Shown here in pieces: positions 11,109-31,938 of a DNA stretch of 34,628 nt. Position 1 is the stretch's first letter. Each line of letters begins with the position of its first letter. The notes beneath the pieces are model-generated. The model searched no databases. It was not told where the DNA came from and saw only the letters and a list, made by a program, of their open reading frames with translations. Both the position numbers and the translations under genes were made by a program. This stretch comes from Porphyridium purpureum (Eukaryota): positions 372,001-406,628 of the forward strand of contig VRMN01000013.1 in assembly GCA_008690995.1 (NCBI GenBank). Direction: 5' to 3'.

Positions 11109-11876
11109 TACATAGATGGAGATACATTACGGAGCTCGGGTGCAAAGGGTAGCATTGACGCCTGCGCCGTGACTAGAAGCGCTTTGAAAGGACTGCGGCC
11201 GCGCTTAAAAGCCTTGACTGGGGGACTCGACGAGCATTGGGCCCATTGCAAGCGGCTCATGATACGCTGCTACGTCCGCGGATGGGACGCTAAAGTGAGC
11301 GCTTAGCGCAGTGAGCAAAGCCAGTAGACGGTCAACGGTGCCCTAACTCTTTCGCCGCGAGCTCTGTCGATCATGCGCTCAGCTCACTCCAGCGCTCCGG
11401 AATGGGAAGACGGTTTTAAGGCTGGGAGTTCCCAGGCCACCGTACTTCCCCTAACAGACGTCGGAGACCTTGTGGATGTTGTGGTCAGCGAACGCAGTGA
11501 GCCATGCGAACCAGGCGAACTTACGCATGTCGCATTTTTGCCCTCATCGGCGAAAACCAAGATGGTACCGTTCCGCCGATCATGGAGGCCTCGGTCTCGG
11601 CCGCGGGTGCCCGCTTGACTTCAGCCTCCCAGTCACAAGCCGACGCCGCGTTTTCCGGTGGCGCGGGAGTCCGCCAGCAACTCATCTCTGGTAGCTACGG
11701 CTCTGCAGTGCTGACACCAGTCGGCACGACTTTTCACCATGGCAGATGACTCGTGGACGGGAGGGGGCTTTCTACACCAACCTGCTCGTGCAACTCCGTT
11801 CCCGGTCGTTGCTGGTCTTGTTTTATGAATACAGCGCGCCGGGTGAACCAGCGGATTGCCGACTTTCGGGTGTCAC

Positions 11877-12370
11877 CATATGGTAGGTTGATGTTAAAAA
11901 ACATTAAAAAATTGTTTACTCAAGTATGCTACAAATGTGTCATTCAAGATGGATATGGAATGATAGCCCTTGCTCACGCGCTCACAACGATGTGCTTTGC
12001 ATGTGAAACGGTGATTGTATGGCTGAGATATCTGACTGTAAGTACCTTTGCAGTGGGTACGCCATTCGCAATGGTGGGTACATGATCCGCAGCCATAGGT
12101 CCGGCATCCGCATATGCTGAACCCCTCAAATCACGGGTGCCAGCAGAACTTCTACCCTAGAGGTACAGTATCTTCATACTGGGGACGCGGTATCCGCTTA
12201 TGATGGGCGTGCCAGCCGCAGCATGTGTACAGTCACGCGAAACATGGTGGAAACGTGATTTGCAGGGTGGGTACGTGATCCGCAAGGTGGGGACGCCAGC
12301 CGCAAGGTTGGTACGCGAGCCGTAAAGTGGGTACGTGATCCGCATGTTGGGTCGAGTTAAAAAGTGTACC
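11877..12370 (+). repeat. Module A copy 1 (494 bp) with internal 20-bp periodic GTGGGTACGTGATCCGCA motifs
   Basis: Aligns ungapped to 18698..19191 with about 19 mismatches by manual count (about 96%). Confidence 0.95.
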
Positions 12371-12613
12371 CCTAGTATCCATTTTACTACTGAAACCGAA
12401 GTGTGCTTAATCGCGTTGCGTAGGACCGAGCCAATCACAGCAAAAGTTTTCTTATTACATACACCTACATGATTGCATTCGTATTTTTACCAGAGCGGAG
12501 TAGTTTTCGCGCCACAACAAACAGAAGTTTTGTCGGGAGTGGGATGTGGGTATCCGGCCGTACGAAGTGCGCGGATGGCGGAAGCGAGCGTGGGGCCATT
12601 TTGATCAGGTCGG

Positions 12614-15600
12614 ATGGTATTTGCTTGTTCCAAGGGATGCGCGGCCGTTTTTGTTCGTGCCAGCGATTGCCGCCTCCACGAGCAGAAGTGTGTCCAACTT
12701 GACGAGTTAGTGTGGGGCTTAGTGTGCCCTCAATGCTCTCTCGCAAAACGATTTCCGAAAAACAGCGAGCCCGACAATGGACAAAGCAGAAAGGCTAAGA
12801 AGGCTCTCAAACGACACATAACACGGGTACACAAAGTCAAGGCGGACGGTTTGGAAGAGGCGTTTTTGAAAACATTTCAAGCTTATTGTACCCAGTACGG
12901 TGTCGAAAGGACCGCAGCGACCGCGCAGACTCGGCTGGTCTATGCGGTATTACACACGGCGAATAGAGAAACGCTTACGCATTCTTCGCTGCAGTCCGTG
13001 ACGCAAGAAATGGAAGACGCAAACCGAAGTGCTGGTGAGAGCGAGGTGGGCATGCGGGTGCTGTGTGGAACTGCGACAGGAGAGGCCATCGTCAAGCTAC
13101 GATGGTTTGAATCCGAGGCGGACATGCAGGATGCGTTTTCAAGGCAGGTTGGCGATGTGACAGACTGTGCGCGTGCGGCCGTGAAGTCGTGGTTGAACAT
13201 TGCCCGGTATTCAATCAATCAAGTGTTGAAAACACGTGCCGACGTGCTGAGACTACCGATACAGGGGAAAAGTACGATTGAATATACTGATGATATCTTC
13301 AAGTATCGTTTACTACCCGCGCTGGAGAAGAGCACAATTTCAAACGCGCTACAGACTTTCACTCAGGTCGTTGAGTTTTACGCGCTGCACGCGCTCAACA
13401 AGTCATTTGAAACCTTTGCGGAGGAGTACAGAGCAAATAATCCGACCGGAGACGAAAGCGACGCGCACGCGGTGCAAGCGCTTATCGTGCGGAACGGCTT
13501 GGAGGATTGTCCGGATGGCCGGACAAAACGCTTTCGTGCGATTGAGTTTCTCCGGTCGCATGCTTTGCATAAAGACTCGTGTGGCCGCCTTGGTCTCAAC
13601 TCGCTTTACAAGCTGGCGAAGCTGTCAAGCTATCAGTTGTGGATGTTGCGAGCCACAGCAGTGACAGAGTTGTACAAGAAGAGTCAAGCATTCCAGCTTG
13701 TCGCGGATCGCGGTTTTGATCTACTCGCTCTGAACGGGTCTCGGCTAAGTGGCCCTCTGTACATGACGCAGAGCATTCTGTGCGCGTCAAAGCCGTGCGG
13801 TGACGATCACGCCGAGTGGCTACTGATTGTGCGGACAGATACAAGTTTGGATACCGGGAATGACAGTGGAAGGTATTTCTTACAGCACCGTGCAAGCGGA
13901 GTACCGGTTCTCCCGTCCGTATTCGGTGTTCTTTACTACAGGTGCGTGCATAGAGCGCGGGACATTCTGGCCAAATTGTTTCCTGAGATGGACGGCGCTC
14001 TGGGTATTCATCTTGACGGCGGTCAAGTGGAAAATGTTATTCAAGGATACTTGTATTGCAAGGCACGGTCGCGCGGGATTAAACGTGTGACGGCATCAGA
14101 GGTCGCGCAAAAAGTTTGCGGTGCCTCGCGCGAGATTAGAAATGAGCTCAGTATATGCTCGCTTCTCGCACTACAAGCAGCGTGCATGCCTCTGCGGTCA
14201 TCATCTTCTCAGCAGGGAATTGTTCTTTCGAGCAGACATCAAGGGCATTCGCTCAAAAACTTGGGTGAAAACGTCGTCAGTGTTGTGGAAGTGGTGGTGA
14301 AAAACAGGCACAAAGCATTTGGAGTACCGCTTGTGGAACGGTTGCCGACGACGGCGGTATCTGATTTGTTCGTGATCTTGCATTGGACGGCGGATTTCTT
14401 CCTGCGCCACTGTGAAAAGGAGCATTTGGAATTCATCACCCCACTGAATTTTGCGTCAGCTACGCAAGTGAGCAAAGATGTAGATGTGTCTGAGCAAGCC
14501 TCGGACATGATGGGGCGCAAAGCTCAGGAAAAAACGCTCTTTGCACTTACCGGGGTGCCAATGACGGTTGGAGAATTTCGCAAGCTAGCATCGCACGTCC
14601 TGAAGCGCGAACCAGCGGCATTCGCAGACGTCCTTGGGCTTGACACCATGGCGCTTCACAGCGAAGCTCAGAAGGCGCTCGCTCTGAAGTTAGGACACAC
14701 CGTTTCTACAGACGAAGTATGGTACAATTTGGCTCTGAATGTTGACGAGTGCCTCTGGTTCGAAAGAGACACGCGCAATGCGTGGCTGACTTTAGTTGGT
14801 ATCGAAGACGAGCGTCTCCCTTTGGAGCTTCAGAACATGTGTTTCGCAGAGGTGGTTCGAGCAGTTCCAGATCTTGGTACCCCACACAAGGCTCTGCAAA
14901 GTGTGTTCGGTATTGATGCAGCATTTCAGACAGAGGGTCAAGAGCAGCTGCTTCGTTCTGTCTGGGAAGGACATGATACAGCAGCCCAGCTGCGCTGCGG
15001 TGCCGGCAAGAGTGCCTCTTTTCTGTGTGCGGGCCGTCTAGCTGAACGCGTGGGCCGCATTGTTCTTGTATTGACACCCATGCGTGCTGCAAGTGACGCA
15101 GCTATCGCGCAGGCAAGATCTTGTGGTATTGAATGCTTCGATATCGAAGATCTGCGTGCTGGCAGCGCCGCGCATCGGGGTGGTATTGTGGTCTTGTCTT
15201 TCGATCAAGTTCAGACGGGTAGAAATGTACTGAGTGTGCTGGAAAAGATTGTGGCAAGAGTCATTCTTGCAGTAGTTGATGAGGCTCACATTGTTTGCGA
15301 GCATACGAGCTTTCGCGCGTCGATGCAGGCAGGACTGCTTGGTATGCGCCTTGCTGGAATTCAGCGCGTATACTTGAGTGCCACGTTGACGATGGACGTA
15401 GCTGACTATGTTGCGAAAGTTCTGTGGTCTCCAGAACCGCAATTTGTAACAGACTCTGAGGTTCTGCCTCCGATCTCCAAGTTGTCTGTGTCCCCACTGA
15501 ACGATGAGTCAAGGCTTGCCCTGCACGTGCGCGTGGAAAAGGCTTCAGTGGAGGGAACAAGAGTTCTCATTGTTGTGCCAACCAAAAAACTGGTCGAAGA

Positions 15601-16819
15601 TGAGTATTTGCGGCTTGTGGATAATTTCCCCCAGCTGGGCGACAGAATTGGTATGATCACAGCAGATACTGAAAGCGTCGCGCGTGAGAGAGCCAAATTA
15701 TGCACAGTCATCGTCGGAACGTCCACCGTCGGATTAGCCCTAAACCTCGAAAATACTTGCGTAGTCGCAGTGCTTTATGCTACATTCTCGATTGCGCAGT
15801 TGGTCCAAGCGTGGGGCCGTACCGGCCGGCGGACAAGTCTCTCGCATACGCCAGAGTGCTTTTTCTGGTTTGACCCGAACGTAGCCAGCGCACTGCAGAG
15901 GAGCACTATTGCGCAAGATGTGCATCGACCGGCGTGCTTGACACACCCCATGTACTCGATGCAAGCTGTGGAAAAGTTTTACGACGAATGCCGAAGCAGG
16001 CCGAACGCTGTAATTCGTGAGCAGCTAGTGAAATTGTGCATCGAGCGTGCGGACAGGTATTCAAGTCTTGTGTCAAGTGAAAGCAGCCTGCCGAATGTAT
16101 CCAACTCTGAGAATGTGCAGATGACTCCGGTTCGCAAAGTGCACACGGCTACGCGCGACGAGCAATTAACGGCGAGCATCTCGAACTCAGAGCGTCCTTT
16201 TATGACGCTTCTGCAAGCAGACCTTAGCAGTGTACACGGGCTGAACGGGTCACGGGAGGACGCAACGGAAGGTGTGCGTTCGTTGAAAAGGGCACGAGTA
16301 CACGCACCGGAAGGTGTGCGTTCTGTATCATTAGCCGTGGTTTGTGCGACGAGTAAGGGATGGCAGCGGATATGGTCCACGGCTGTGGAGCGCTGTCCAT
16401 TCTGTGGTTTAGCAGCGTGCTCCGGTAGTTGCTATCGGCCTGTGACTTGCATGCAGTGTGGCAAGATTGGGAACATGCACAAGCACACTGCTCATGCGTA
16501 TATCAGATTGCATATACCTCCCAGAGCCCCTTCGAGTGGACTCTTTTGTGTGGCGTGCCTAGCTCCCAATCATTGGACTGCCGGTGTCTTCATCGACAAG
16601 GAGTTGCACGCGTCTCTGACGCGAGCGCAATCAAGCACTGGGATTCAGCGTCCAGGCCTTCTCAAAGCACGAATAGAGCATCTGTATTTGGCTCATCGCC
16701 ATCGGCAGTATCCTCATCTTGCCCTGGATGCTTATTTTAAGTGGCTTGTAGAGGTTGACACTGCAGGGATAACAAACGCAATGAAGGCGTTAGCGCAGAT
16801 GGACTCTGTCTTGTCGTAA
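12614..16819 (+). CDS. Zn-finger / tyrosine-recombinase-like / RecQ-like SF2 (DEAH) helicase / Cys-rich Zn-finger fusion protein (telomere-linked-helicase-like architecture)
   Basis: Helicase motifs CGAGKS, LTPMRA, VVDEAH, LSATL, VGTSTVG and QAWGRTGR. Upstream MPLR(528)...EFRK(R656)...LGH(695)TVSTDEVWY(704). N-terminal CPQC...HITRVH. C-terminal CPFC...CMQC...CVAC. Confidence 0.88.
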   Translation: MVFACSKGCAAVFVRASDCRLHEQKCVQLDELVWGLVCPQCSLAKRFPKNSEPDNGQSRKAKKALKRHITRVHKVKADGLEEAFLKTFQAYCTQYGVERTAATAQTRLVYAVLHTANRETLTHSSLQSVTQEMEDANRSAGESEVGMRVLCGTATGEAIVKLRWFESEADMQDAFSRQVGDVTDCARAAVKSWLNIARYSINQVLKTRADVLRLPIQGKSTIEYTDDIFKYRLLPALEKSTISNALQTFTQVVEFYALHALNKSFETFAEEYRANNPTGDESDAHAVQALIVRNGLEDCPDGRTKRFRAIEFLRSHALHKDSCGRLGLNSLYKLAKLSSYQLWMLRATAVTELYKKSQAFQLVADRGFDLLALNGSRLSGPLYMTQSILCASKPCGDDHAEWLLIVRTDTSLDTGNDSGRYFLQHRASGVPVLPSVFGVLYYRCVHRARDILAKLFPEMDGALGIHLDGGQVENVIQGYLYCKARSRGIKRVTASEVAQKVCGASREIRNELSICSLLALQAACMPLRSSSSQQGIVLSSRHQGHSLKNLGENVVSVVEVVVKNRHKAFGVPLVERLPTTAVSDLFVILHWTADFFLRHCEKEHLEFITPLNFASATQVSKDVDVSEQASDMMGRKAQEKTLFALTGVPMTVGEFRKLASHVLKREPAAFADVLGLDTMALHSEAQKALALKLGHTVSTDEVWYNLALNVDECLWFERDTRNAWLTLVGIEDERLPLELQNMCFAEVVRAVPDLGTPHKALQSVFGIDAAFQTEGQEQLLRSVWEGHDTAAQLRCGAGKSASFLCAGRLAERVGRIVLVLTPMRAASDAAIAQARSCGIECFDIEDLRAGSAAHRGGIVVLSFDQVQTGRNVLSVLEKIVARVILAVVDEAHIVCEHTSFRASMQAGLLGMRLAGIQRVYLSATLTMDVADYVAKVLWSPEPQFVTDSEVLPPISKLSVSPLNDESRLALHVRVEKASVEGTRVLIVVPTKKLVEDEYLRLVDNFPQLGDRIGMITADTESVARERAKLCTVIVGTSTVGLALNLENTCVVAVLYATFSIAQLVQAWGRTGRRTSLSHTPECFFWFDPNVASALQRSTIAQDVHRPACLTHPMYSMQAVEKFYDECRSRPNAVIREQLVKLCIERADRYSSLVSSESSLPNVSNSENVQMTPVRKVHTATRDEQLTASISNSERPFMTLLQADLSSVHGLNGSREDATEGVRSLKRARVHAPEGVRSVSLAVVCATSKGWQRIWSTAVERCPFCGLAACSGSCYRPVTCMQCGKIGNMHKHTAHAYIRLHIPPRAPSSGLFCVACLAPNHWTAGVFIDKELHASLTRAQSSTGIQRPGLLKARIEHLYLAHRHRQYPHLALDAYFKWLVEVDTAGITNAMKALAQMDSVLS

Positions 16820-17567: not shown

Positions 17568-17773
17568 GCAGTGCCTCTGCTCTGGCCGCTATGCAGCGTC
17601 GCAGTGCCTCTGCCCTGGTCGCTATGCAGCGTCGCACTGCCGGTGCCCTGACCGCGATGCAGCGTCGCACTGCCGGTGCCCTGACCGCGATGCAGCGTTG
17701 CACTGCCGGTGCCCTGACCGCTACGCAGCGTCGCACTGCCGGTGCCCTGACCGCTACGCAGCGTCGCACTGCC
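17568..17773. repeat. 33-bp minisatellite, 6 full copies + partial
   Basis: GCACTGCCGGTGCCCTGACCGCTATGCAGCGTC-like units at 17568, 17601, 17634, 17667, 17700, 17733 and 17766. Confidence 0.92.
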
Positions 17774-17878
17774 TCAATCGCTGGTTCCCACACGACGTGC
17801 AGCCGCTCGCGCGAACACTCCACTCAGCTCGTCCACTGCTTGCGATAGATCACCACCAGGTTACTCGCGAGTGATGCG

Positions 17879-18140
17879 GGTGAAAAGTAAAGTAGAGTAG
17901 ATTGTCCGAAGTCCGAAGTTGTGCTGAGTTACTGTAAAATGATGCTGTTTTAATGTGAAAACATTTTACTGTCGAATTTTGTGTCCAAAGTTGACTTTTC
18001 ATGGGTAAATGGCAGTGTTTTAGGATGAGGAATTTAGCATAGAAAAACGAATCCTAGAGCATAGTAAAACAGTAGTATTTTGATAGTGTGTTTGAGCATA
18101 GAAAAAAGGCATTGAAATGTGATAAAGTGCGTGTTCAGTT
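17879..18140 (+). repeat. Module B leader copy 1 (AT-rich, 5'-shortened), followed by a GC-rich tract
   Basis: Shares GAGTAGATTGTCC..., GTTGACTTTTCAT.GGT.AATGGCA.TGTTTTAG and GCATAGTAAAACAGTA..ATTTTGATA...GCATTGAAATGTGATAAA with the copies at 19190, 20405 and 28436. Confidence 0.8.
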
Positions 18141-18425
18141 GGCGCTGAAACCAATTACCCGATTAGAGCGGATCAGCGCTAATGCGGGCGTAGAGCGAAG
18201 TGCTGGCGTGGGGCGAAGGCGCGCGGGCGCAGTGGGGCGGCGTGAGTGGGCGCGGCGTGCGCAGCGCGCACCCGAACGCGCAGTAATTAGGTACGATGGA
18301 GCGCGCGGTGGGCGCGGTGGAGCGCGACGTGCGCGGCCAGCGCTCGCGGGCACGGGTGGTGGGTGGGGATGGGCGCGGACGGGCGCAAGTGGTGGGACTC
18401 GATGGGATCCGGTAAAGCGTGCTTG

Positions 18426-18700
18426 AGCGCGGCGGCGTGAAGAAGAGGCCGCCGCTGCCGAGCACGCTCGACACGAGAACGCGTGAGCTTTGGCCGCACA
18501 ATACGCCGACGCTGCCGAGCACGCTCGACACGAGAACGCGCGAGCTTTGGCCACACTTTGCGCCGCTGCCGCCGAGCAAGCGCGCCGTACGGGTGAGTGT
18601 CGAGATCTTGCTGGATAACGCGCCGTTGCCGCGGAGCACACGCGCCATGAGCAGGTGCGAGATGTTGTCCAACAACGCGCCACTGCTACGGAGCAGGCAT
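18426..18700 (+). pseudogene. Fragment of AAEQARR-type coiled-coil repeats (cargo 1)
   Basis: Reads ARRREEEAAAAEHARHENA*...AAAAEQARRTGECRDLAG*; resembles 9080..9180. Confidence 0.6.
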
Positions 18701-19191
18701 ATAGTAGGTTGATGTTAAAAAACATTAAAAAATTGTTTACTCAAGTATGCTACAAATTTGTCATTCAAATTGGATATTGAATGATAGCCCTTGCTCACGC
18801 GCTCACAAAGATGTGCTTTGCATGTGAAACGGTGCTTGTATCGCTGAGATATATGACTGTAAGTACCTTTGCAGTGGGTACGCCATTCGCAATGGTGGGT
18901 ACATGATCCGCAGCCATGGGTCCGGCATCCGCATATGCTGAACCCCTCGAATCACGGGTGCCAGCAGAACTTCTACCCTAGAGGTACAGTATCTTCATAC
19001 TGGGGACGCGGTATCCGCTTATGATGGGCATGCCAGCCGCAGCATGTGTACAGTCACGCGAAACATGGTGGATACGTGATTTGCAGGGTGGGTACGTGAT
19101 CCGCAAGGTGGGGACGCGAGCCGCAAGGTGGGTACGCGAGCCGTAAAGTGGGTACGTGATCCGCACGTTGGGTCAAGTTAATAAGTGCACC
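18698..19191 (+). repeat. Module A copy 2 (494 bp)
   Basis: Direct repeat of 11877..12370, offset 6821 bp. Confidence 0.95.
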
Positions 19192-19565
19192 ATAATAAAA
19201 TGGTGTTGATTTGCTACAAGTGAGTACAACAACGATACTGTACAGTTGCACAGGGGAAAAGAAGAGTAGATTGTCCATAGTCCAACGTTGCGTTCTGCAT
19301 AGTACCACGGTATCGTTTTAATATGAAAATAATTTACCATAGCGGTTCGTGTCCATAGTTGCCTTTTTTATAGGTGAATGGCATTGTTTTAGGCTGAAAG
19401 ATTTAGCATAGAAAGACGACCCCCAAAATGGGTGGTAATGCATTACATAGGCATCCCGAATTCGCGGTGAATAAGCATAGTAAAACAGTATCATTTTGAT
19501 ATGATACCCGAGCATAGCAAATTACCATTGAAATGTCATAAAATGCGCATCAAGCTGGACTCAGG
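19190..19565 (+). repeat. Module B leader copy 2, followed by a GC-rich tract
   Basis: Starts CCATAATAAAATGGTGTTGATTTGCTA; collinear with 20405..20785. Confidence 0.88.
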
Positions 19566-19852
19566 ACAAAGTGCCTGTTGCGCGATCAGCGGGTGGTGCG
19601 GGCGGCGGGGTGAGAGACGTGGAGCGCGAACGGTTGGGCGCGGGCGCGGGCGCAGGCGCGGGGCGCAGTCAGGCAATGGAGCGCGGGCACTTAGCGGGCG
19701 GGCGTGGGCGCGGGCGCGGGCGAGCCTGGGGCGCGGGCGCGCGGGCAGGCGATATGGGCGCAGGTGGTCGGGCGGTGGGGCGCGTTGGGGCGTGGGCCGG
19801 CAAGGAGAAATGGGATTGTCTTGGGAAGTAGAGTGGGATCGCGAAGTGCGAA

Positions 19853-20129
19853 ATGGACCTCGCTGCAGCGCAGCAGGGTGAAGGAGAGGCCGCTTTCACG
19901 GAGCATGCGAGCGGCGAGAAGGAGAAGCAAGATTTGCGGCGTACTGCGCCGCCGCCGCCGAGCAAGCGTGCCGAAAGGAGGCGCAAAATTCGCCGGACAA
20001 TGTGCCGGTGCCGTGGAGCATGTGCGGCGCGAGGAGGTGCGAGGTGATGTTGCACAACGCGATGGCGCAGCCGCCGCCGAGCAAGCGCGCCACAAGGAGG
20101 CACGGGATTCGCCGCACAACGGGCCATAG
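19853..20129 (+). pseudogene. Fragment of AAEQARR-type coiled-coil repeats (cargo 2)
   Basis: Frameshifted AAAAEQAC...AVEHVRREEVRGDV...AAAAEQARHKEARD; similar to cargo 1 and 9080..9180. Confidence 0.55.
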
Positions 20130-20215
20130 ACGTGGTGAATGACGAGTGTCTTATTTATTACATATCTCGGCTTCTATGCGTCTTGAAAACATGTTTCACT
20201 TATCGTTCGATGCAG
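20124..20215 (+). repeat. Module C copy 1 (92 bp, starts CCATAG)
   Basis: Identical to 22230..22321. Confidence 0.95.
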
Positions 20216-20297
20216 CTTGTCCCTCTGTGCCCGCTCCAATCATTACGTGCTCGATACCTTCCTCCGTTCTAGAGATATTTGAAATTTTCTATTTTTT

Positions 20298-20402
20298 GAG
20301 GGGGGCCTCGAAGAGCTATGAGGGGGGCCTCGCGGAGCTATGGAGGGGGCCTCGAGGAGCTATGGAGGGGGCCTCGCCAAAATTTTGGGGGCCTCGAAGA
20401 GC
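20298..20402 (+). repeat. 22-bp periodic GGGGGCCTCG motif, 5 copies
   Basis: GAGGGGGCCTCG..GAGCTATG-like units ending just before GCATAG at 20405. Confidence 0.9.
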
Positions 20403-20404
20403 AA

Positions 20405-20785
20405 GCATAGTAAAATGATGCTGATTTGCTATGAGTCAGTACAGCAACGATACTGTACAGTTACAGAGGTGAAAAGAAGAGTAGATTGACCATAATCCGA
20501 CGTTGCGTTTTGCACAATAGAGTGGTATCGTTTTAATATGAAAATATTTTACTATAGACGCTTGTGTCGATAGTTGACTTTTCATAGGTGAATGGCACTG
20601 TTTTAGCATAGATGCTGCAGCATGGAAAAACGACCCCAAAAAAATGACAGGTAATGCATTACAAAGGCATCCCGCGTTGGTTGTGAATGAGTATAGTAAA
20701 ACAGTATCATTTTGATAGTGTACCAGAGTATAGCAAATTGGCGTCGAAATGTGATAAAATGCGCATCAAGCTGGACTGAGGACGC
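20405..20785 (+). repeat. Module B leader copy 3, followed by a GC-rich tract
   Basis: Starts GCATAGTAAAATGATGCTGATTTGCTA; collinear with copy 2. Confidence 0.88.
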
Positions 20786-20940
20786 AGTGCCCGTTGAGGG
20801 ATCGACCGGCGGTGGGGGGCGGTGGGGCGAAGGAGGAGCGCGGGCGGTAGTGGGGCGGGGTGGGCGCAGGCGCGGGCAGGCGCGGGCGGGCGCTGGGGTG
20901 CGGCGGTACGCGAGTGGTGTCGGGCGGTGGCGTCGCGCGC

Positions 20941-21709
20941 GTCGGCCAGTGACGACTGGGCAAGATTTTGGCTGGCGGCTCGCACGGCACGAGCCAGCAC
21001 TTTGAGCAATGCGCGAGATTGGGGCGCGCAGCAGCTGAGAAATGACACACGGAAGCCATGATTCAGCTTGTCCGCGATAACCACCATTAGCGTTGGCGCT
21101 GAGCGCCAAGGCGCAGACGGCGCTGGACGCCACGGAGCAGACGGCGCTGGACGCCACGGAGCAGACGGCGCTGGGAACCATGGAGCAGACGGCGCTGGGC
21201 GCCACGGAGCAGACGGCGCTGGGCGCCACGGAGCAGACGGCGCTGGGCGCCACGGAGCAGACGGCGCTGGGCGCCACGGAGCAGACGGCGCTGGGCGCCA
21301 CGGAGCAGACGGCGCTGAGCGGCAAGCGGTTTGTCGATGAGAATTAGGTGGAGCACGAGTGTGGGGCTCAGGCATTTGCGGGTTACGCCCGTGAGGCAGC
21401 CATCGAAGAGCAGGCTCGTCTCGTCGCGAAGACCACGCAAACGGTCGACGCCTGTTTGCAGCGCGAATTACGCTATTTTTGTCGAGAGGATGTGGGCGGG
21501 CTGCCGCACCCCATGTGCAAAGAAGTCGGGTGGTTGCGCAAGGCCGCAGAGGACGGCAACGCGTGGGCACCGTTTTATCTGAGCGATTGCTACGTCAGCG
21601 GGCTGGGCGATCTGCCGGAGGTCGAGTTCGCGGCGACCGAGAGGTTGCGCAAGGTCGCGGAATAGGGAGGCGCAAAGGTGCAGTGCAGTTTGGGCGCTTT
21701 GCAACTTGA
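20941..21709 (+). pseudogene. Sel1-like repeat gene fragment (cargo 3), paralogous to the kinase tail
   Basis: 20941..21076 aligns at nucleotide level with 8689..8824. Later it reads WLRKAAEDGNAWAPFYLSDCYVSGLG...LRKVAE*G. Confidence 0.75.
21111..21317. repeat. 24-bp minisatellite (EQTALGAT), about 8.6 copies
   Basis: GAGCAGACGGCGCTGGGCGCCACG units; a single-copy counterpart (ALETEEQTAL) lies near 8929..8958. Confidence 0.92.
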
Positions 21710-21947
21710 GCGCTTCTCATTAAGGTGGGCACGGCAGTCCGCGCGAGAGCGAGCTCGTAACAGGCGAGTGGTGGCGCAAGGACGCGGAGCAAGAAACAGC
21801 TACAGAGCTATAAAATTTACACGCTTGTAAACGTAGTCTTGAAGACAGTCTGCCCAAATACAGGCGCGACAGCTGCGAAAGGGGTGAGAGCAGGTGCGCA
21901 TGAACACTCGTGAGCACAACTGAGCGCAGGTGAGCATGAGCATGAGT

Positions 21948-22230
21948 GAGCACGAGTGAGCACGGATGAAAGCACAGAACACTACTGAGCACGAGTGAGC
22001 ACGGATGAAAGCACAGAACACTACTGAGCACCAGTGAGCACGGGTGAGAGCACAGAACACTACTGAGAATGATAGAACACTACTGAAGACTACAGAACAC
22101 TACTGAAGACCACAGAACACTACTGAAGACTACAGAACACTACTGAAGACCACAGAACACTACTGAAGACCACAGAACACTACTGAAGACCACAGAACAC
22201 TACTGAAGACCACAGAACACTACTGAAGAC
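21948..22230. repeat. Compound minisatellite: 39-bp unit x3, then 20-bp ACTACTGAAGACCACAGAAC units
   Basis: 39-bp units at 21948, 21987 and 22026; the 20-bp array ends abruptly at CCATAG 22230. Confidence 0.92.
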
Positions 22231-22321
22231 CATAGACGTGGTGAATGACGAGTGTCTTATTTATTACATATCTCGGCTTCTATGCGTCTTGAAAACATGT
22301 TTCACTTATCGTTCGATGCAG
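22230..22321 (+). repeat. Module C copy 2 (92 bp)
   Basis: Identical to 20124..20215. Confidence 0.95.
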
Positions 22322-22427
22322 GGTTAGAGGCGTTTTTCAGGTAGGGTGGGCCCTGCGGTTCGGCCATACCATAGTACAGTTGCTTCGGGCTACAGTACAG
22401 TTGCGTTGGACTATAGTACATGGTTAT

Positions 22428-23236
22428 CTTTAAATTCTCGCACGCTTGATGATGACAAGCGCACGAACCCGGATGACACAACCCTTCTCAGATGACCGAA
22501 CCCCAGCAACACGACGCACACAGCACAGAGAACACAACCACACGACGCACACAACACAGACGACGAATACCCGGGGCGTGGAAAATCCAGCGTATAGGGC
22601 CTCTACTATTGCCTTTCGCGTCGGCACAGACAGCACCGGTCTCGACAGGGGCAGGGTGTCGTAACGGACAAAGCCGCCGTCTGCCTTCAGTGCTCCAAGA
22701 GCACCGAAACCCCCCAGACACGATGTGCTGCTGGCTCTGCTACACAGGCTCAGCAAAAGGCCCCACGCCTTCCGACGGCCACGCCCAGGCACCCGACACC
22801 AAAGAACAACTCTTCCTTTATTCTCTGTGTCGTACTCCCTTGCCTCTACTTCTTCCGCTCTAAAGAAAATCCGGGGAACCGCACAGGCCCGCGCCCATTA
22901 TATACCCCGCCGTCCTTGCTGTCCTTGACGCGGAAGGGAGAAATTATTTCTCCCAAAAGGCTGGGCTTTCCTCCGTTCGTTCCACAGAACGAAGCCACAG
23001 CCAGCCACGTCAGCAAGCGGCTCAATGGGTGCTGGCCGGCCGCCAAGCGGCTCCTGCTTCCCTCGGACACGCGACTGCGGCTCCTCGGGGCGAAAGACAA
23101 CAATACACAAAACCAGAGGTACAGGGTAAAAAACCACGCGGGCGAAAAAGCCCCTGTACCTCAAACAATTCCGAGACGCCGTACCTCCGGGTGTACACCC
23201 AGGGCGTCTCTCGGACCGGAACACTTTTAATCCATG
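22428..23236 (-). repeat. 3' LTR (809 bp)
   Basis: Matches 27622..28430 with about 9 substitutions and two 1-bp indels by manual count. Confidence 0.95.
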
Positions 23237-26200
23237 CTCCTCCTTCCGATCTGAGGGACGCGTAACATAGTCCAACACCTGATATGACCTTCCGGAAACA
23301 AAGGTTTTGTCATCAAGTCGGACACGTTTTCCCCCGTCCTCACATATTCCAATCTCACCAGCTTTTGCTTCTCGCAAACTTGGTGTATCCACGCCAAGTC
23401 CGTGGCTCTGGTCACTGCCATGTGATGCAACTTTGGCGAGTAGCCCATCTCGACCGCACGGAGAACAACTTGACTATCACAAAGCAGGGTCAACGCATAA
23501 TCCCCCTCTTGCACGCTTCGAAGAAACGACAATGCCGGAAACAAAGATAACTGCACCGCTTCTTCCAGAGCGGCCATCTCAGACTCAGAGGTCGAAGAGC
23601 TCACAAAGCGTTGCCTTCTGGAGCTCCAATCGACCAGATACTTGTTTCCACCCGCGACCAAGTACGTCACTCTCCCAGACGTTGACTTGCGCGTTTCCGG
23701 GCATCCAGCAAAGTCGGCATCAGCATAGCCCAAGACGCTTACGTCGCCGATCTTCAATGACGTCATCTGCAAATACTCAAGTGGCTCACGAGGCACCTTC
23801 AAGTATTGCATGACGCGAACCAGGAGTCTCTCAGCTGCGACGTTCCAGCTATCCACATACCGAGCCACCACTCCAACTGCATAGGAGATATCCGGTCTGA
23901 CCGTCCTGGCCAACCACAGCAGCCGCCCGACATGCTCGCGTATTTTCAGATGTCCATGTTCGACTTGAACATCCAATACAGCGTCAGCATTCATCTTCTC
24001 ACCTGGTGATTTCACCGCTCGCAGCACCTGCCCAAGTTCTTCTTCGAATTCCTTCACCACCAAAGCTTGGTAGTGATCATGACCCAACGAAAACCGTGTC
24101 GCCGACTCCGAGATCGTGAGTCCTAGGAACCTTAACGGGGCTCCTTCCGAGAGGACTTCCGGCTCCTTCTCAATGAGGAACTCTGACCTCAACTCTCGAA
24201 ATATCTCACCCCGATCCTTCTCGACACACGCGAGCAGACCATCGTCGACATACAAGGCTAGGAGTGCAACAGATGCACTTCCCGCCATCTTTTTCACGTA
24301 TACGTTCTTCTCGCCGTGAATCAAATCCCACCCGAACTTTTGAAGTCTTCTGCGGGCATCCTGGGAAAAGTCAGACCCGCTTCTTGGCAAGCCATAAAGC
24401 GCCCTCCTCAAGCGAACGACAAGTCCATCACCTCCTCCTGGAACGTGTCGGGGCAACATGGCAAACGTCGGTGGTCCTGACAAGTCAGCGTGTAAGTACG
24501 CCGACGTCACATCGAACGATACGATCTTCAATCCTAGGATAGCGGCCAAAGCTATCAGCATTCTGATCGCAGACAGGCCCGCGGGCACCTCATAGTCAAA
24601 CACATCCTGAGTGACCTTCCCTGAGGCATCCCAAATCCTATTTCCACCAGCAACAAGCCGACACTTGACCTTGCGAAACTCCTCCGGAAGCTCAGCGAAC
24701 TTCAATCCGAATATAAAGTGTGTCCGCACAAATCGTGCGCCTGGGACCTTGAGAGCTTCTTCCCTTGAAATAGGTTGCTCATCCCATACCTTGAATCGGA
24801 TCATCAAGTCCACTTCTTTTTGCATGGCTTCTCTTCCAGCCGAAGAAGCCAGAGCTTGGCTCGTCTGCAACAAAGTTGTCAAGTTCAATTGCGGTGTTTC
24901 TGGAGCAACTCCTGCGCGTTGCCTCCAATTTTCCTCCGAGAGGCCCATATTATGAGCCCGGGCTCGCACATCCTTTCCGTTTCTTGAATCGCGGAACACT
25001 GCCTTATATTCTTGCAGAGTTCTTTCCCACTTCCCCCAGCCAAAGAGCCGTAAGCCATCCATGATGGCCTGATCCTCTTCCCGGCTCCAAGATACCCTGG
25101 GTTTTCGTTTCCCCCTTCTTCCAATAGGTAGGGGAACATCCTCCTTCAAGTTCCCGGATACACGCGCCTCGGCCGTATTCGTAGGCAACACCATAGTCTC
25201 TTGACTATCCGGTTCTTCCTGCCTAGAGTGAAAGTCGATTTCACCCTCACGTGCCGAGACCTCCTCGTCATCCCTTGTTTCCAAAGTCCGCATTGGAAAC
25301 ACTTCAGGGAACGCCTTGAAGTCCTGAGTGCGAGTCAGCTTCGGTGCCGCACTCGTCCACTCCTCCTGAGGAAGGACCCAGATTGCCAGCGGATGCTCCG
25401 CAACTCCAACAAGGACTCCAATCTTTCCTCTGGGTGCATACTTGTTCTCCGGTTGATCATTCTTGAAAACCACCTTGCACCCAAATGGTACTGCTACCTT
25501 CCCCCGCTTCCATCTCTCACCGTACCTCATTTCATACGGAGACTTCCCAGACTTCTTGTCTGGGTGCAGCCGATTGAACATGAATACGAAATGCTGAGCG
25601 GCATGCAAAAACCACCGCTTTCCCAGCCCAGACTGCAGGAGATTTGCTCGTACCCCCTGATTCAAAGTATGATGGAAACGTTCCTGTTCAGCGTGGCTAT
25701 TCGGTCTATGTGGGACCCCAATCTCATGCTTCACGAGATTCTCCCGTACCAAATTGCTCACATTTCCCCTGAACTCGTTTCCATCATCTGTCCTCAGTAC
25801 CTTTGGCCATCCTCGCCCGGCTTGCACGCTTGTCCAAGCTTCAGCAACCGCCGTATGCGTTTTGGCTCTCAATCCTGCCAGTGTGGCCCACCTCGTCGCT
25901 CTATCGATGTGCGTCAGCATGTGCTTCGCTCCATCGATGGCTTCCACGTTACGTCCGGGCTCCACCAGGTCGATCCCAACTTCGTCATTGAACGACAAAG
26001 TGGACAAGTCCTTCTCCAGCCTTCTTGCTGGTCGGCTCTTGATCTTGGCCACAGCACACGTCTCACAATCATCCCGCATCGGCATGTGAGTCAACGCATG
26101 TTCCATCCCGGCCATCTTTCCTTCGACCTCTTCACTGGCACTCTCCTCTTCTCCATCGTACGCTTGATTTCCGCTTGACTCGGAAAGAGCGTCCACGACA

Positions 26201-26652
26201 TTTACCATCGCACAATCTTCCACATTTTCAAGTTCCAAGTCCATCGAACCCCTCTGCCAATCAATCCTCGGGTTCACGCGACTCAGCCAGTCCCACCCGA
26301 GAATTGCATCCATTTGCAGAGGTCCGACATAAAACTTGACCGGCCCTTTCCAGAACCCAAGATCAACATGCTGCAACACCGGGCCATGCACTAAGACACT
26401 TTGCCCACCCGCAAGCTTGACCATTCCGTTCTCGCGCCCTTCAAATCTGCCGACAAAGCGAGATCCAAGAAAATTGTGCGATGCTCCGCTGTCCACCAGA
26501 AATTGGACAGACTCGCCATCTAAAGTTCCACGCTTGTAGAGCAACCTCGACGCCGCATCAGCGCGCCAGACCTCACCTACAAAGCCCATCCCGGGAGGTT
26601 CCGTTCCCCTCGAGTGCACCTCCCAGCTTCTCCCTCGAGGTTTTAGTTTTCC
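23227..26652 (-). CDS. pol: Pol polyprotein: aspartic protease, integrase, Myb-like domain, Copia-type reverse transcriptase, RNase H (entered by -1 frameshift)
   Basis: Protease FLVDSGASHNF. Integrase HALTH...CETC, VGIDL, LRTDDGNEF, AEQER and PFGCKV. RT KCRLVAGG, FDVTSAYL, RALYGLPRSG and LYVDD. Then RPDISYAV and RNase H YADADFAG..RKSTSG, SSSTSESE. The frame is open upstream at least to 26727; the stop codon lies inside the 3' LTR. Confidence 0.93.
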   Translation of the reverse strand, partial: GKLKPRGRSWEVHSRGTEPPGMGFVGEVWRADAASRLLYKRGTLDGESVQFLVDSGASHNFLGSRFVGRFEGRENGMVKLAGGQSVLVHGPVLQHVDLGFWKGPVKFYVGPLQMDAILGWDWLSRVNPRIDWQRGSMDLELENVEDCAMVNVVDALSESSGNQAYDGEEESASEEVEGKMAGMEHALTHMPMRDDCETCAVAKIKSRPARRLEKDLSTLSFNDEVGIDLVEPGRNVEAIDGAKHMLTHIDRATRWATLAGLRAKTHTAVAEAWTSVQAGRGWPKVLRTDDGNEFRGNVSNLVRENLVKHEIGVPHRPNSHAEQERFHHTLNQGVRANLLQSGLGKRWFLHAAQHFVFMFNRLHPDKKSGKSPYEMRYGERWKRGKVAVPFGCKVVFKNDQPENKYAPRGKIGVLVGVAEHPLAIWVLPQEEWTSAAPKLTRTQDFKAFPEVFPMRTLETRDDEEVSAREGEIDFHSRQEEPDSQETMVLPTNTAEARVSGNLKEDVPLPIGRRGKRKPRVSWSREEDQAIMDGLRLFGWGKWERTLQEYKAVFRDSRNGKDVRARAHNMGLSEENWRQRAGVAPETPQLNLTTLLQTSQALASSAGREAMQKEVDLMIRFKVWDEQPISREEALKVPGARFVRTHFIFGLKFAELPEEFRKVKCRLVAGGNRIWDASGKVTQDVFDYEVPAGLSAIRMLIALAAILGLKIVSFDVTSAYLHADLSGPPTFAMLPRHVPGGGDGLVVRLRRALYGLPRSGSDFSQDARRRLQKFGWDLIHGEKNVYVKKMAGSASVALLALYVDDGLLACVEKDRGEIFRELRSEFLIEKEPEVLSEGAPLRFLGLTISESATRFSLGHDHYQALVVKEFEEELGQVLRAVKSPGEKMNADAVLDVQVEHGHLKIREHVGRLLWLARTVRPDISYAVGVVARYVDSWNVAAERLLVRVMQYLKVPREPLEYLQMTSLKIGDVSVLGYADADFAGCPETRKSTSGRVTYLVAGGNKYLVDWSSRRQRFVSSSTSESEMAALEEAVQLSLFPALSFLRSVQEGDYALTLLCDSQVVLRAVEMGYSPKLHHMAVTRATDLAWIHQVCEKQKLVRLEYVRTGENVSDLMTKPLFPEGHIRCWTMLRVPQIGRRSMD
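23237..23247 (-). other. Polypurine tract GGAAGGAGGAG
   Basis: 11 purines abutting the 3' LTR on the element sense strand. Confidence 0.85.
26591..26652 (-). promoter_or_regulatory. Predicted -1 ribosomal frameshift signal (G_GAA_AAC + H-type pseudoknot)
   Basis: Heptamer 26652..26646 directly before the gag stop, 5-nt spacer, stem 1 CCTCGAG/CTCGAGG, stem 2 CTGGGAGGT/ACCTCCCGG; pol is in the -1 frame. Confidence 0.78.
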
Positions 26653-27599
26653 GGGCCTCCCGCCAAGTGCCCATTCCGCTTTGGGCAATTGGGTTTGATG
26701 TGGCCGCGCTGCCCGCAATGGTAGCATCTGACTTTGCCCATGTCCGCACGCTTGCGCTTCTCCGGCTGGCGTTTCTCCACGACGCCCAAATCCATTGGCG
26801 CCGTCCCGGCATACGACGAGCTGTTCCGGTAGTTTGGACTCGAGGCGCCATGAAAAGCCTCCCTCATGTCTCCTCCAAACCTACCAACCTGCTCCGCAGC
26901 CAACGCCGCCCTCAGCGACTCTTCCAGCGTCTTCGTGTCCTGACGCGCCACCTCAAGGCGAAGCTTCTCCTTCAGGCCGAGAGTGAAGATGGTGTTGAGC
27001 TCGGCATCCGTCACACTATCCACGGATAGAGCCACCATCCTCAGGCGCTGCTCAAACTCAGCAACAGTCATCTTGCCCTGCTTCAGCTGATACAAGTTCG
27101 TTCGAGCAGTCAGGTATGCCTGCGGCGGCTCAAATGCCGTCCGCACGAAGTTCGCGAACGCATTCCAACCGGACTCGGCCAATGCCATCCTCTGTTCCTC
27201 AGGGCGAGCTGCCCACAGGAGCGCGGCATCCTTCTCAAAGAAGCGCGACGCTACGATCACCTTCTGCGACTCCAGCGCTCCAGCTGGCATGCACATGTCC
27301 AAGTCTTGCTTCATCCTCGACAACCACTCGTTCACAACGAGTTTGTCGCGCTGTCCGTCGTATTTTCTCAAGCTGCGTCCAATCAGCGATGCAACGGTCC
27401 TTTCCGTTTCGCCGGGACCAGCTGACACAGATGCCTGATGCATCACATTCTGCAGCATCTCCTGCAAGAGGCGGTTTCCCTCCTGCAGCTGCACAATCAT
27501 CATTTCTTGTCCTCCGATACGAGCATGAAGCTGGTTGAAAGCTTCAATCCACGACGCGCCGCCCTGCAGGCCCTGCACGTCCATTCCCTCAGAATCCAT
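26643..27599 (-). CDS. gag: Gag (Ty3/Gypsy-type capsid + CCHC zinc knuckle)
   Basis: YDGQRD...EWL, LYQLKQGKMTVAEFEQR, FTLGLK and PMDLG followed by CYHCGQRGHIKPNC. Confidence 0.92.
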   Translation of the reverse strand: MDSEGMDVQGLQGGASWIEAFNQLHARIGGQEMMIVQLQEGNRLLQEMLQNVMHQASVSAGPGETERTVASLIGRSLRKYDGQRDKLVVNEWLSRMKQDLDMCMPAGALESQKVIVASRFFEKDAALLWAARPEEQRMALAESGWNAFANFVRTAFEPPQAYLTARTNLYQLKQGKMTVAEFEQRLRMVALSVDSVTDAELNTIFTLGLKEKLRLEVARQDTKTLEESLRAALAAEQVGRFGGDMREAFHGASSPNYRNSSSYAGTAPMDLGVVEKRQPEKRKRADMGKVRCYHCGQRGHIKPNCPKRNGHLAGGPEN

Positions 27600-27609
27600 C
27601 TTCGCCGAT

Positions 27610-27621
27610 GCGATGATACCA
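27610..27621 (-). other. Primer-binding site TGGTATCA(TCGC), initiator-Met-tRNA type
   Basis: Immediately follows the 5' LTR; the first 8 nt match the common TGGTATCAGAGC PBS. Confidence 0.75.
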
Positions 27622-28430
27622 CTTTAAATTCTCGCACGCTTGGTGATGACAAGCGCACGAACCCGGATGACACAACCCTTCTCAGATGACCGAACCCCAG
27701 CAACACGACGCACACAGCACAGAGAACACAACCACACGACGCACACAACACAGACGACGAATACCCGGGGCGTGGAAAATCCAGCGTATAGGGCCTCTAC
27801 TATTGCCTTTCGCGTCGGCACAGACAGCACCGGTCTCGACAGGGGCAGGGTGTCGTAACGGACAAAGCCGCCGTCTGCCTTCAGTGCTCTAAGAGCACCG
27901 AAACCCCCAGACACGATGTGCTGCTGGCTCTGCTACACAGGCTCAGCAAAAGGCCCCACGCCTTCCGACGACCACGCCCAGGCACCCGACACCAAAGAAC
28001 AACTCTTCCTTTTATTCTCTGTGTCCTACTCCCTTGCCTCTTCTTCTTCCGCTCTAAAGAAAATCCGGGGAACCGCACAGGCCCGCGCCCATTATATACC
28101 CCGCCGTCCTTGCTGTCCTTGACGCGGAAGGGAGAAATTATTTCTCCCAAAAGGCTGGGCTTTCCCCCGTTCGTTCCACGGAACGAAGCCACAGCCAGCC
28201 ACGTCAGCAAGCGGCTCAATGGGTGCCGGCCGGCCGCCAAGCGGCTCCTGCTTCCCTCGGACACGCGACTCCGGCTCCTCGGGGCGAAAGACAACAATAC
28301 ACAAAACCAGAGGTACAGGGTAAAAAACCACGCGGGCGAAAAAGCCCCTGTACCTCAAACAATTCCGAGACGCCGTACCTCCGGGTGTACACCCAGGGCG
28401 TCTCTCGGACCGGAACACTTTTAATCCATG
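27622..28430 (-). repeat. 5' LTR (809 bp)
   Basis: Direct repeat of 22428..23236; contains TATATAA on the sense strand near 28092..28098. Confidence 0.95.
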
Positions 28431-28435
28431 GTTAT

Positions 28436-28755
28436 ACATGTGTAAAAACAAGTAGACCAGATCGTCCAAAGTCCAAAATTACGATGTGTATAGTAAAAAG
28501 ATATCGTTGTCATATGAAAATACTTGGAGGTTGGTGTCCAAAGTTGGCTTTTTCATAGGTAAATGCCAGTGTGTTAGTATGAGAAATCGAGCATAGAAGA
28601 ACGAACCCAAAATAATTGATGGTCATGCATTACATGGGCATCCCATGTTGGTTGTGAAGAAGCATAGTAAAACAGTAGCATTTTGTTAGTATGCATGAGC
28701 ATAGAAAATTGGCATTGAAATATGATGAAGTGCGGGCTCAAGTCGACCTGAGGAC
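28436..28755 (+). repeat. Module B leader copy 4 (its 5' part, 22369..22427, lies on the other side of the LTR element)
   Basis: Shares GTGTCCAAAGTTGGCTTTTTCATAGGTAAATG, ATGCATTAC..GGCATCCC and GCATAGTAAAACAGTAGCATTTTG with the other B copies; followed by a GC-rich tract. Confidence 0.85.
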
Positions 28756-29479
28756 GCCGTGCGCATTGAGCGATTGGCGGGTTGTGCGGCCGGCGAGGGA
28801 GCGAAGAGTGGCGCCGGCGTGGGGCGAGAGACGAGGGGCGCGAATGATGGGGCGAGGTTGGGCGGGCGCGGGCATGAGCGCAGGCGCGAGCGCGGGCGCA
28901 GGCGCAGTCGGGCGGTGGAGCGCGGTGGGGCGCGGGCGGCGGGAAGATAGTTTCGGACGGACGACAGGGAGTGAGGTGGGAAATGGCTGGGAGCGATGGG
29001 CTAGGGACAGCCGGAGATGAGCTGGGGTTAGTCGACAAGAGGCACAAGCGACGCAAAGCGCCCGCATGTGCGCGTGTTCGCCTTGCGCTTCAGTGACTCC
29101 GCTACTTGCCGCAGAAGCTCTCGGAAGACGAATGCACGCGCGTTGATCTCGTAGCCGCGGCGAGGACCAGGGCCGCGGATGTCCGGCAGCGCTTTGCAGG
29201 ATGGGAACGGTATCGAATCTCGTGTCGTGGCTGTGGCTCAAGTCCGCGCGGTTCGGCTGATAGCGTCGGTGATGCATTGAGTCCGAACCAAGCGGCATGC
29301 CCTGCGTGGCATGCCAATGCACCATGTTGAGCGTGTCGTTCTGGATCGCGATCACGCAGTGTGCCAAGCGCCGTTGGATCGTATTGTGGCTGTGCAAGTG
29401 GCAGCGCGAATGTATGGAAAGGTGAAATCGAAGAAGCTTGTGTGCTGTCATGATGGAGGAGCTGTGCATGGAGCCCGCG

Positions 29480-30634: not shown

Positions 30635-31110
30635 CACTGTGTGTGTGAGTAGCGTCATTGTAGGATGCTTTGCGACAGGCACGAGCCACGATGGATGGTG
30701 CACACGTCGTTGAAAGCGTGGACTAAGTGATCGGCGTGGTAATGAAGCTGCACGCTTGGACGCGCGCCGTGCTTGTACTGCCGGCGGTTGGAAAGCAAAG
30801 ACAAGCTAACAATAGTATGCGACCAAAGTCACGGCGCGCGAGTATACCGTGTACATCGGCACTCGCTTTGGCGCGGGTACATGCTGAAGGTCGGAGACTC
30901 CGCGCTGTCAAGCTAAGACACTATGTGGTGGGAAGTCCCTAATAGCAATTCGCGTTAGGGTTTCCTTTTCCTAGTGTAGCTCATTAATGGAAAGTGCATT
31001 GCCCAGTGTCTTCACAGGCAAATGTGGAGCCAGAGAAGAGCTACCCGCAGACGTTTTCGCCTTTCTCAAACGCCTCCTACTTCGAGCCAGTCCTTCGATT
31101 TAATGGTTTT

Positions 31111-31459
31111 GAGGGGTAGTCACTATCTGCTATATTAGTGGTTTTCAAATGCTACGGGGTGGTCACCATCTGCTACAAAAATTGCATTGAAATGCTTATG
31201 CAAAACTCAGTACAAATTTAGCTTTTTTCAGAAGGAAATTTCGTGGTAAAATCGTCTTGTTTGAGGGGGTAGTCACCAAACGTAAGGGGGTAGTCACCGT
31301 GTGAAAGCGTATGAAAGTATCTCATTTTCATAGAGACGTGTTGTATCTAAATGATTGTTTCCTGAGGGGGTAGTCACCATATGCAAGTGTATAAAAATGC
31401 TCCAGTTACTTATACACATTCTGTACTTAAATGGCATCAATCTGAGGGGGTGGTCACCA
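31111..31459 (+). repeat. Cluster of six GGGGTRGTCACY motifs in AT-rich DNA
   Basis: Copies near 31111, 31156, 31263, 31285, 31364 and 31444. Confidence 0.88.
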
Positions 31460-31938
31460 AAAGGAAGCGTGTCTTTAGTTAAACAGGCGGCAACTACATG
31501 AGCGCATGGATTTTACTAGTGAAATCTAGCTTTCCAAAGTCAAATCATACAGCGAGGCCACTTTGCCACGAAAACTCGCCATGGCAAGCGCATATGCGGA
31601 ACCCCCATGTTTACAACTTTTCCTGATCAGAATGAGCGTTTTGGTACAGAAGCCTCTGGTTTCTATGTGGGAGAATTATTTTAGTAAGAGTAATCATCGT
31701 ACTAAAACGATCGCATTTGACGGGTCGATGTTCATTTCAATGTCATCCCTACAGTGTTCGTGGGCAAGCCTTTAGCCGTGGAGTGTGAGCGAGGTTGGTC
31801 GTCGGGTTCGAGGCGGTCGAGGAGTGGTCTAGAGAAGTTTGAGGACGGGGCGGCGGGTTGTGGGCAATGGGCAGCAGCGTACCACAGTGTTTTTACTCAT
31901 GAGGCAATCACACATGCAGAGTGGAGCTAGTGTCGGTT

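Follow-up and report, generated by a model that had tools for sequence, protein, structure and literature searches.

A likely tyrosine recombinase fused to a RecQ-like helicase in a multi-copy, probably self-moving unit of Porphyridium purpureum

A stretch of 34,628 nucleotides from Porphyridium purpureum (GenBank assembly GCA_008690995.1, contig VRMN01000013.1, positions 372,001 to 406,628 of the forward strand; this whole stretch is called the window, and position 1 is its first letter) carries a gene whose protein, P0001, appears to combine a tyrosine recombinase with a RecQ-like helicase. In the reading that we prefer, the gene belongs to a multi-copy unit that joins one fixed end, starting with CCATA, to C or CC at its targets, i.e. 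to a mobile element of the type of the telomere-linked helicases (TLH). We give this reading about an even chance (roughly 0.5). That the unit is self-moving DNA and not a host gene is probable, because an intact, multi-copy gene sits behind a sharp end that is joined to different neighbours among samples.

The P0001 protein and its upstream domain

P0001 (1401 amino acids) is encoded by a single, stop-free open reading frame (ORF) on the + strand, in DNA of about 55% G+C that looks like that of a compact eukaryote with long unbroken frames. An earlier note on this DNA, made from the letters alone, had described a complete set of SF2 motifs and a RecQ-like helicase, and both descriptions agree with our results: GAGKS (residue 796), DEAH (889), LSAT (921) and QAWGRTGR (1065) are all present, the closest solved structures are those of RECQL5, and the top NCBIfam model is recQ_fam, with a score far under the cut-off. 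In Pfam only the DEAD and Helicase_C domains were found. The N terminus contains two Zn-finger-like motifs, C-x3-C-x12-H-x3-C (residues 5-26) and C-x2-C-x26-H-x4-H (residues 38-73), in other words a C2HC and a long-spacer C2H2, neither of which exactly fits the published TLH C2H2 patterns; no motif of the published pattern was seen in P0003, the full-length second-family protein described below. The exact P0001 protein occurs on 4 contigs. The RNA signal over the ORF is low, with a sense-consistent mate depth of about 2-7 in run X23 and mostly 0-1 in X22 and X24 (coverage was taken from 20-25% of each run), and no splice joints over the ORF were detected in these 3 runs.

The domain upstream of the helicase is likely a tyrosine recombinase, as judged by residues and profiles and not by structure. 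We say so because of the order of the residues, their spacing, and weak profile matches that are in register. R528 (14195), R656 (14579), H695 (14696) and Y704 (14723) stand exactly where the earlier note had placed them, and K563 (14300), in a VKNRHK segment that begins at V562, is the candidate catalytic lysine. The residues follow the order R, K, R, H, Y that is used to recognise tyrosine recombinases, with the histidine 9 residues before the tyrosine. They are also conserved across homologues, as had been claimed: P0003, which is 30% identical to P0001, retains all five (R455, K490, R585, H625, Y634), and all five fall on the corresponding columns of a set of fungal-like proteins.

To assemble the fungal-like set, contigs from metagenomes were scanned for a short motif pattern of helicase-linked proteins of fungi, which gave 37 loci; its name is taken only from the Atlas neighbours of one of them, L001. 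Spacings were read from 19 loci (long open frames, near-duplicates dropped), while 22 loci entered alignment A5 and 18 entered A6. Helicase motifs were present in 20 of the 27 loci having at least 2 kb downstream. An unguided MAFFT alignment places R528, K563, R656, H695 and Y704 on columns that are invariant or near-invariant in the fungal-like set, namely R(GTE), Y-x-K, WR, GH and Y, at a domain identity of 12-20%. The R-K distance is 35 in both proteins and 34-35 in 18 of the 19 fungal-like rows (52 in one row), the K-R distance is 93 and 95 as compared to 90-91 in 17 of 19 (two were mis-picked by the regular expression), the R-H distance is 39 and 40 as compared to 33-34 in 17 of 19, and the H-Y distance is 9 in all of them. 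The same distances in Cre, our reference, are 28, 91, 23 and 9.

Profile comparisons are consistent with this pattern. With the segment trimmed to the catalytic domain, the P0001/P0003 pair matches the fungal-like profile with a score of 31.7 and an E value of 6.5e-4, a score reached by 0 of 40 column shuffles; on long segments, hhalign gives an E value of 0.005 over 70 columns, and in its global mode it gives no match. The fungal-like profile in turn matches 69 XerD-like sequences weakly (E 0.034), in register at R, R, GH and Y, with 0 of 40 shuffles scoring as high. Relatives of Cre, all 99-100% identical, were left out of the comparison. In the Atlas, an Ascomycota cluster of the same descriptors (378 amino acids, 60 members) was returned both for residues 300-760 of P0001 (0.91) and for L001 (0.95); the nearest Pfam-bearing clusters, Phage_integrase, Integrase_2 and, for L001 only, NDC10_II (0.79-0.86), are taken as leads only. 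The spacing pattern common to the fungal-like rows and P0001/P0003 was found in 7 of 5000 shuffles of P0001 residues 1-760, a test that is post hoc because the pattern windows had been widened to admit P0001. Together with the retention of all five residues in P0003, this result places the residues above chance.

Several results weigh against a recombinase. The domain is not matched by any recombinase model in Pfam, PHROGs or NCBIfam. P0001/P0003 align with the XerD-like profile in register but not significantly (E 0.071, a level reached by 5 of 40 shuffles), and with the merged alignment A5 the match is out of register. Since the fungal-like set was picked by a GH...Y motif, the GH and Y part of the match is built in; only these two were selected by the pattern. 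AlphaFold models of the domain were poor with 2 as well as with 24 sequences (predicted local distance difference test scores, pLDDT, of 36 and 43), so that fold searches carry no weight. With the poor model Foldseek found nothing at E 0.001 in the PDB and nothing significant among viral structures, where nudivirus VLF-1, which we take to be a tyrosine recombinase, ranked fourth (E 1.1) with a TM-score of 0.30, the highest among the 50 matches listed and a lead only; VIA-align gave small helical matches only (best Z 6.5). As to the tyrosine-recombinase-like domain that the earlier note proposed, the residues, their order and their spacing are upheld and the fold is putative.

It could be argued from the same results that the domain is something else, that its residues are conserved for another reason and that some other enzyme moves the unit. 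Neither the family models nor the structure searches gave a significant recombinase match, and the histidine of the H-x-x-R motif is absent, the position being G653 in P0001, Arg in P0003 and in most fungal-like rows Asn, Ser or Ala. This histidine varies in some tyrosine recombinases. Five ordered residues that keep a near-constant spacing at such low identity, in-register profile alignments to XerD-like proteins and the Atlas neighbours speak against this explanation, which is very improbable.

The fixed end and the stacked units

The window contains a stack of units on one strand that can be written as A-gene-B0, A'-B1, C-B2 and C'-B3. The units at 11876, 20124 and 22230 start with CCATA and the one at 18697 starts with GCATA. 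The two copies of end A form a 494-bp repeat (11877-12370 and 18698-19191) that is 96% identical, and the two copies of end C (20124-20215 and 22230-22321) are identical. The 494-bp repeats were considered as two ends of one element, in the manner of long terminal repeats (LTRs); the idea was rejected because other copies continue past 18698 and the second repeat opens a unit of its own.

Eight of the 24 listed sequencing runs were compared with the window (X16-X21, with small word shares, were left out), and the run assemblies amount to 20-31 million letters. In X1, which may be the source of the window, a single contig covering 12315-17653 has a depth of 253, as compared to 97.5 for the flank contig (9202-11907). 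The gene contig has a depth of 908-1212 in X3 and 670-1340 in X4, the corresponding flanks 153 and 412. These single-contig depth ratios, which are not exact copy numbers, suggest that there are more gene copies than flank copies and that the ratio differs by sample. The gene-less derivative (A'-B1) reaches a summed depth of about 12000 in X4 against the same flank value of 412, again not a copy number, and an X7 contig covers 18854-19646 of this derivative with 13 differences.

It is conspicuous that end A is joined to different sequences at the same base. In X4, a 4170-bp contig follows the window over 9457-11877, and its next 1749 bases are unlike it, i.e. the flank is present without the end. 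Loose ends before 11875/11876 lead into three further flanks (one alike in X22 and X24, one in X23 and one in X4), one of which is the 20-bp array of 21973-22236. Together with the two junctions of the window, five flanks of end A are known, each ending in C, and the bases common to target and end, where readable, are C, CC or CCA. We also considered a triplet, CAT, as the target and rejected it, as the X4 allele and the sequences that run on from 18698 share only C or CC. Behind 18698, loose ends were found in X22, X23, X24 and X4, and 18698 is joined to 20054 in X1, X3 and X7. Two of the run-on motifs were tested, and neither reappears further downstream in the window except for one match with 5 mismatches in the paralogous B1. 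Record 5 of X1 matches the window up to 20126 and then continues unlike it. The multiple copies, the sharp end with several flanks and the X4 flank that lacks the end bear out the earlier note's suggestion of a mobile DNA element.

Some minor observations concern the same region. At 19089 a copy of end A continues, in X4 and X5, into a short TTAGGG-like stretch. X7 has no cover over 9502-11505 and yet covers the element, a hole that proves nothing. The flank just before end A (11868-11877) resembles the unit of the G-rich repeats at 31110-31460, a single case that may be due to chance.

A one-ended route and its alternatives

The unit is probably moved by its own protein, and a one-ended route of movement is an evenly balanced proposition. 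Tyrosine recombinases bind the 3' side of a nick. RecQ helicases translocate 3' to 5' according to the available part of the TLH preprint (bioRxiv 2024.02.27.582403). In the proposed route Y704 would nick the strand that has its 3' end at the fixed end, and would stay bound to it as a 3'-phosphotyrosine; the fused 3'-to-5' helicase would load at the nick and peel this strand off through the element; the tyrosine would hand the 3' end to a 5'-OH at a target with only 1-3 shared bases; and copying would continue to a break or to the chromosome tip. A nick on the strand with its 3' end at CCATA would put the helicase in place to peel that strand off, and the transfer to the 5'-OH of the target would produce a single exact joint, with a far side that varies; copying up to a break or tip would leave a variable far end and replace the distal DNA.

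A number of points speak against this reading. The X4 allele has no joint back into 9000-21000, the only region compared, and a right end further on is possible. The flanks seen in the reads may be those of copies of end A that lack the gene, not of gene-bearing ones. The second-family gene is oriented such that a strict one-ended stack needs the fixed end of that family to be 3' of its gene. The window contains no TTAGGG-type array, and its location near a chromosome end would follow only from its right edge, which is probably the contig end.

The architecture matches that of published TLH proteins, in which C2H2 motifs at the N terminus are combined with a 'TLH domain' of 250 residues and a RecQ core, as described in the available part of bioRxiv 2024.02.27.582403. 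Like the TLH proteins of fungi and Monosiga (M. oryzae TLH1, S. pombe tlh, F. oxysporum TLHcr), P0001 has a Zn-finger-like N terminus, a domain of about 250 residues and a RecQ core. In M. oryzae, as far as the accessible text of PMC1635262 goes, the 3' end of the gene points toward a variably truncated tip, tandem repeats lie upstream, the boundary is sharp, at 'the first or second cytosine', and the regions form arrays of full and truncated units. The present unit is likewise multi-copy, with short tandem repeats upstream, a sharp C/CC upstream boundary and arrays of full and truncated units; it differs in its variant Zn motifs, in its gene-less derivatives and in having two divergent families side by side. 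The comparison was made via published descriptions and the fungal-like metagenome proteins of the same layout. In the portions of the two papers available the upstream domain is given without a function and the word 'recombinase' occurs 0 times (bioRxiv 2024.02.27.582403; PMC1635262). By layout, the P0001 unit can be regarded as a mobile element of TLH architecture, an assignment that falls short of strict membership in either the TLH genes or the Cryptons. Because of this match the newness of the 'new DNA element' of the earlier note has to be tempered, and its mobile behaviour stands. A fusion of a recombinase to a RecQ helicase was not found in a targeted literature search, outside which lie Rehmeyer 2009, Robertson 2009, the preprint supplements and Repbase.

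We suggest, tentatively, that TLH-type genes are widespread, unrecognised eukaryotic transposons that combine nicking by a recombinase with RecQ strand peeling from one fixed end, as a mirror of Helitrons, and that the window holds an intact, recently moving copy with a cis end defined to the base, plus gene-less derivatives. If this is true, TLH genes would be selfish DNA with a transposition route undescribed for eukaryotes. With an intact frame and an end that is located to the base and differs among samples, a single protein and a 500-bp substrate would be enough to test the idea.

The main alternative, which we consider less likely, is a two-ended, Crypton-like element that is excised as a circle and integrates by tyrosine recombination via a short, partly mismatched overlap; the helicase would aid replication of the circle or junction migration, and the stack would consist of nested insertions whose right remainders lie beyond the contig end. 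Such an element fits all the window data. Nesting would explain why the X4 allele and the run-ons do not rejoin within the window, the opposite orientation of the second-family gene is explained more simply, and an integrase that needs only about 2 bp of matching overlap is known, namely IntDOT. CryptonS and CryptonF resemble the unit in their tyrosine recombinase (likely here), in the lack of inverted repeats and in TATGG on the other strand: most CryptonS end in TATGG according to the main text of PMC3212892, and CCATA is its reverse complement. CCATA is common, however, with 18 + strand sites in the window, where neither a second end nor a terminal direct repeat (4-6 bp at the two ends) was located; the targets share merely C, CC or CCA with the end, and four nested insertions in one orientation would be required. 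The TLH regions described in print have one fixed side, the opposite side being truncated (PMC1635262, available part). The fused RecQ helicase also sets the unit apart from Cryptons: 'helicase' occurs 0 times in the main text of the Crypton paper (PMC3212892), and the Crypton-linked Pfam domains GCR1_C and DUF3504 have no match in P0001. The 'Crypton-like' label of the earlier note is a live rival and not the best fit.

It is improbable that the gene is a subtelomeric host gene serving telomere maintenance, which host recombination or break-induced replication would have spread passively from one chromosome end to another. TLH genes are discussed in this way in the available parts of PMC1635262 and bioRxiv 2024.02.27.582403; the recombinase-like domain would then resolve telomeric structures or merely bind DNA, and the intact frame and weak transcription in one run suit such a gene. 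On the other hand, joints made by an enzyme account better than homology-driven copying for the base-precise end with unrelated flanks and 1-3 shared bases, for the lack of end A at this flank in X4, for the gene-less derivatives that keep end A and for the second, 30%-identical multi-copy family with 6 cluster members.

Other known systems share single traits with the TLH-type, one-ended element preferred here. Helitrons and IS91 move by a rolling circle from one end; their nuclease is of the HUH type and forms a 5'-phosphotyrosine, and their helicase runs 5' to 3'. They are similar in that a nicking enzyme is fused to a helicase and a fixed end is combined with a variable far end (conjectural here); they differ in that a likely tyrosine recombinase and a RecQ-like helicase are used here, with a polarity that would be the mirror image. 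By Pfam, P0001 has no HUH Rep and no Pif1-type helicase, only the RecQ-like SF2 core. Starships are eukaryotic DNA elements with a tyrosine recombinase (DUF3435), a domain without a Pfam match in P0001, and we know of no fused helicase in Starship captains. A reverse transcriptase was not found in P0001 by Pfam, unlike in DIRS and Ngaro elements; that of the window belongs to a separate LTR element. Academ elements use a DDE transposase. They are eukaryotic DNA elements that carry a RecQ helicase (PMC3627910, available part). A tyrosine-recombinase-like relaxase that nicks a fixed origin for strand transfer is described for MobK in the accessible text of PMC8152469. MobK is bacterial, has no fused helicase and serves conjugation.

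The second family and other features of the window

The coordinates of the features are collected in Table 1.

Table 1. Features of the window, with positions counted from its first letter.
Feature	Position	Strand	Basis
P0001 ORF: Zn-finger-like N terminus, recombinase-like domain, RecQ-like helicase, Cys/His-rich tail	12614..16819	+	ORF, Pfam, structure matches
Two Zn-finger-like motifs	12626..12832	+	sequence motifs
Likely tyrosine-recombinase catalytic domain, residues 490-737	14081..14824	+	R528, K563, R656, H695, Y704; residues and profiles
RecQ-like SF2 helicase core, residues 773-1073	14930..15832	+	Pfam, motifs, structure matches, recQ_fam
Cys/His cluster in P0001 tail, residues 1261-1300	16394..16513	+	Cys pairs align with paralog
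Fixed upstream end A, starts CCATA, common to gene-less derivative	11876..12370	+	repeat match, X4 allele, loose ends
20-bp G-rich tandem repeats inside end A, stop about 260 bp before start codon	12253..12352	+	repeat analysis
33-bp tandem repeat downstream of P0001 ORF	17578..17773	+	repeat analysis
Downstream region B0, 72-86% like parts of B1-B3; stops at 18698, other copies continue	17889..18698	+	self-comparison, reads
Gene-less derivative: second end A copy (18698-19191), directly followed by B1	18698..20124	+	self-comparison, reads
Third unit: different end C (CCATAG, 92 bp), 22-bp repeats, B2, tandem arrays	20124..22229	+	self-comparison, reads
Fourth unit: end C, then B3 (28450-28925) with inserted LTR retrotransposon (22428-28430)	22230..28925	+	self-comparison
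Second recombinase-helicase family, P0002 (full form P0003, 1353 amino acids)	31939..34626	-	cut by window end just after first catalytic Arg
Spaced G-rich short repeats, downstream of second-family ORF	31110..31460	+	repeat analysis

The second-family gene, in opposite orientation to that of P0001, encodes the 30% identical paralog. A HMMER search with P0001 against 1.84 billion representatives returned 2 proteins only, P0001 and P0003 (E 1.5e-19). The 90% cluster of P0003 contains 6 proteins, on contigs that range from 28 to 1003 kb; two of the proteins are on contigs that are each 28,441 long. The six proteins have a common C terminus and three of them lack the N-terminal part: P0002 and P0005 begin at residue 459 and P0004 joins at residue 269. 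Going by these protein sequences, with their shared C terminus and variable N terminus, the fixed end of this family may lie 3' of the gene. Word-index protein searches returned the query alone, and one over proteins of 2369-5000 amino acids returned nothing, which carries little weight as this is the wrong length class. Locus scans with two-sequence alignments of P0001 and P0003 found no relative, and an ascomycete-style motif pattern was found in 0 viral contigs.

The LTR retrotransposon inserted in the fourth unit (22428-28430, - strand) looks intact, with LTRs that are 98.6% identical and a 5-bp target duplication, GTTAT. It has a copia gene order and reverse transcriptase, yet a Ty3-like gag (Pfam), a Myb-like insert before the reverse transcriptase, and LTRs that end in CA...AG, not TG...CA. 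Its depth is very high in X1 and X3, and RNA reads from another sample join its end to 17957 and 18070 as well. Further genes of the window encode a WD40-repeat protein (1852-3960), a protein kinase with a weak MLKL-N-like N terminus (6779-8530; E 0.034) and a DXD glycosyltransferase-like ORF (9408-11108).

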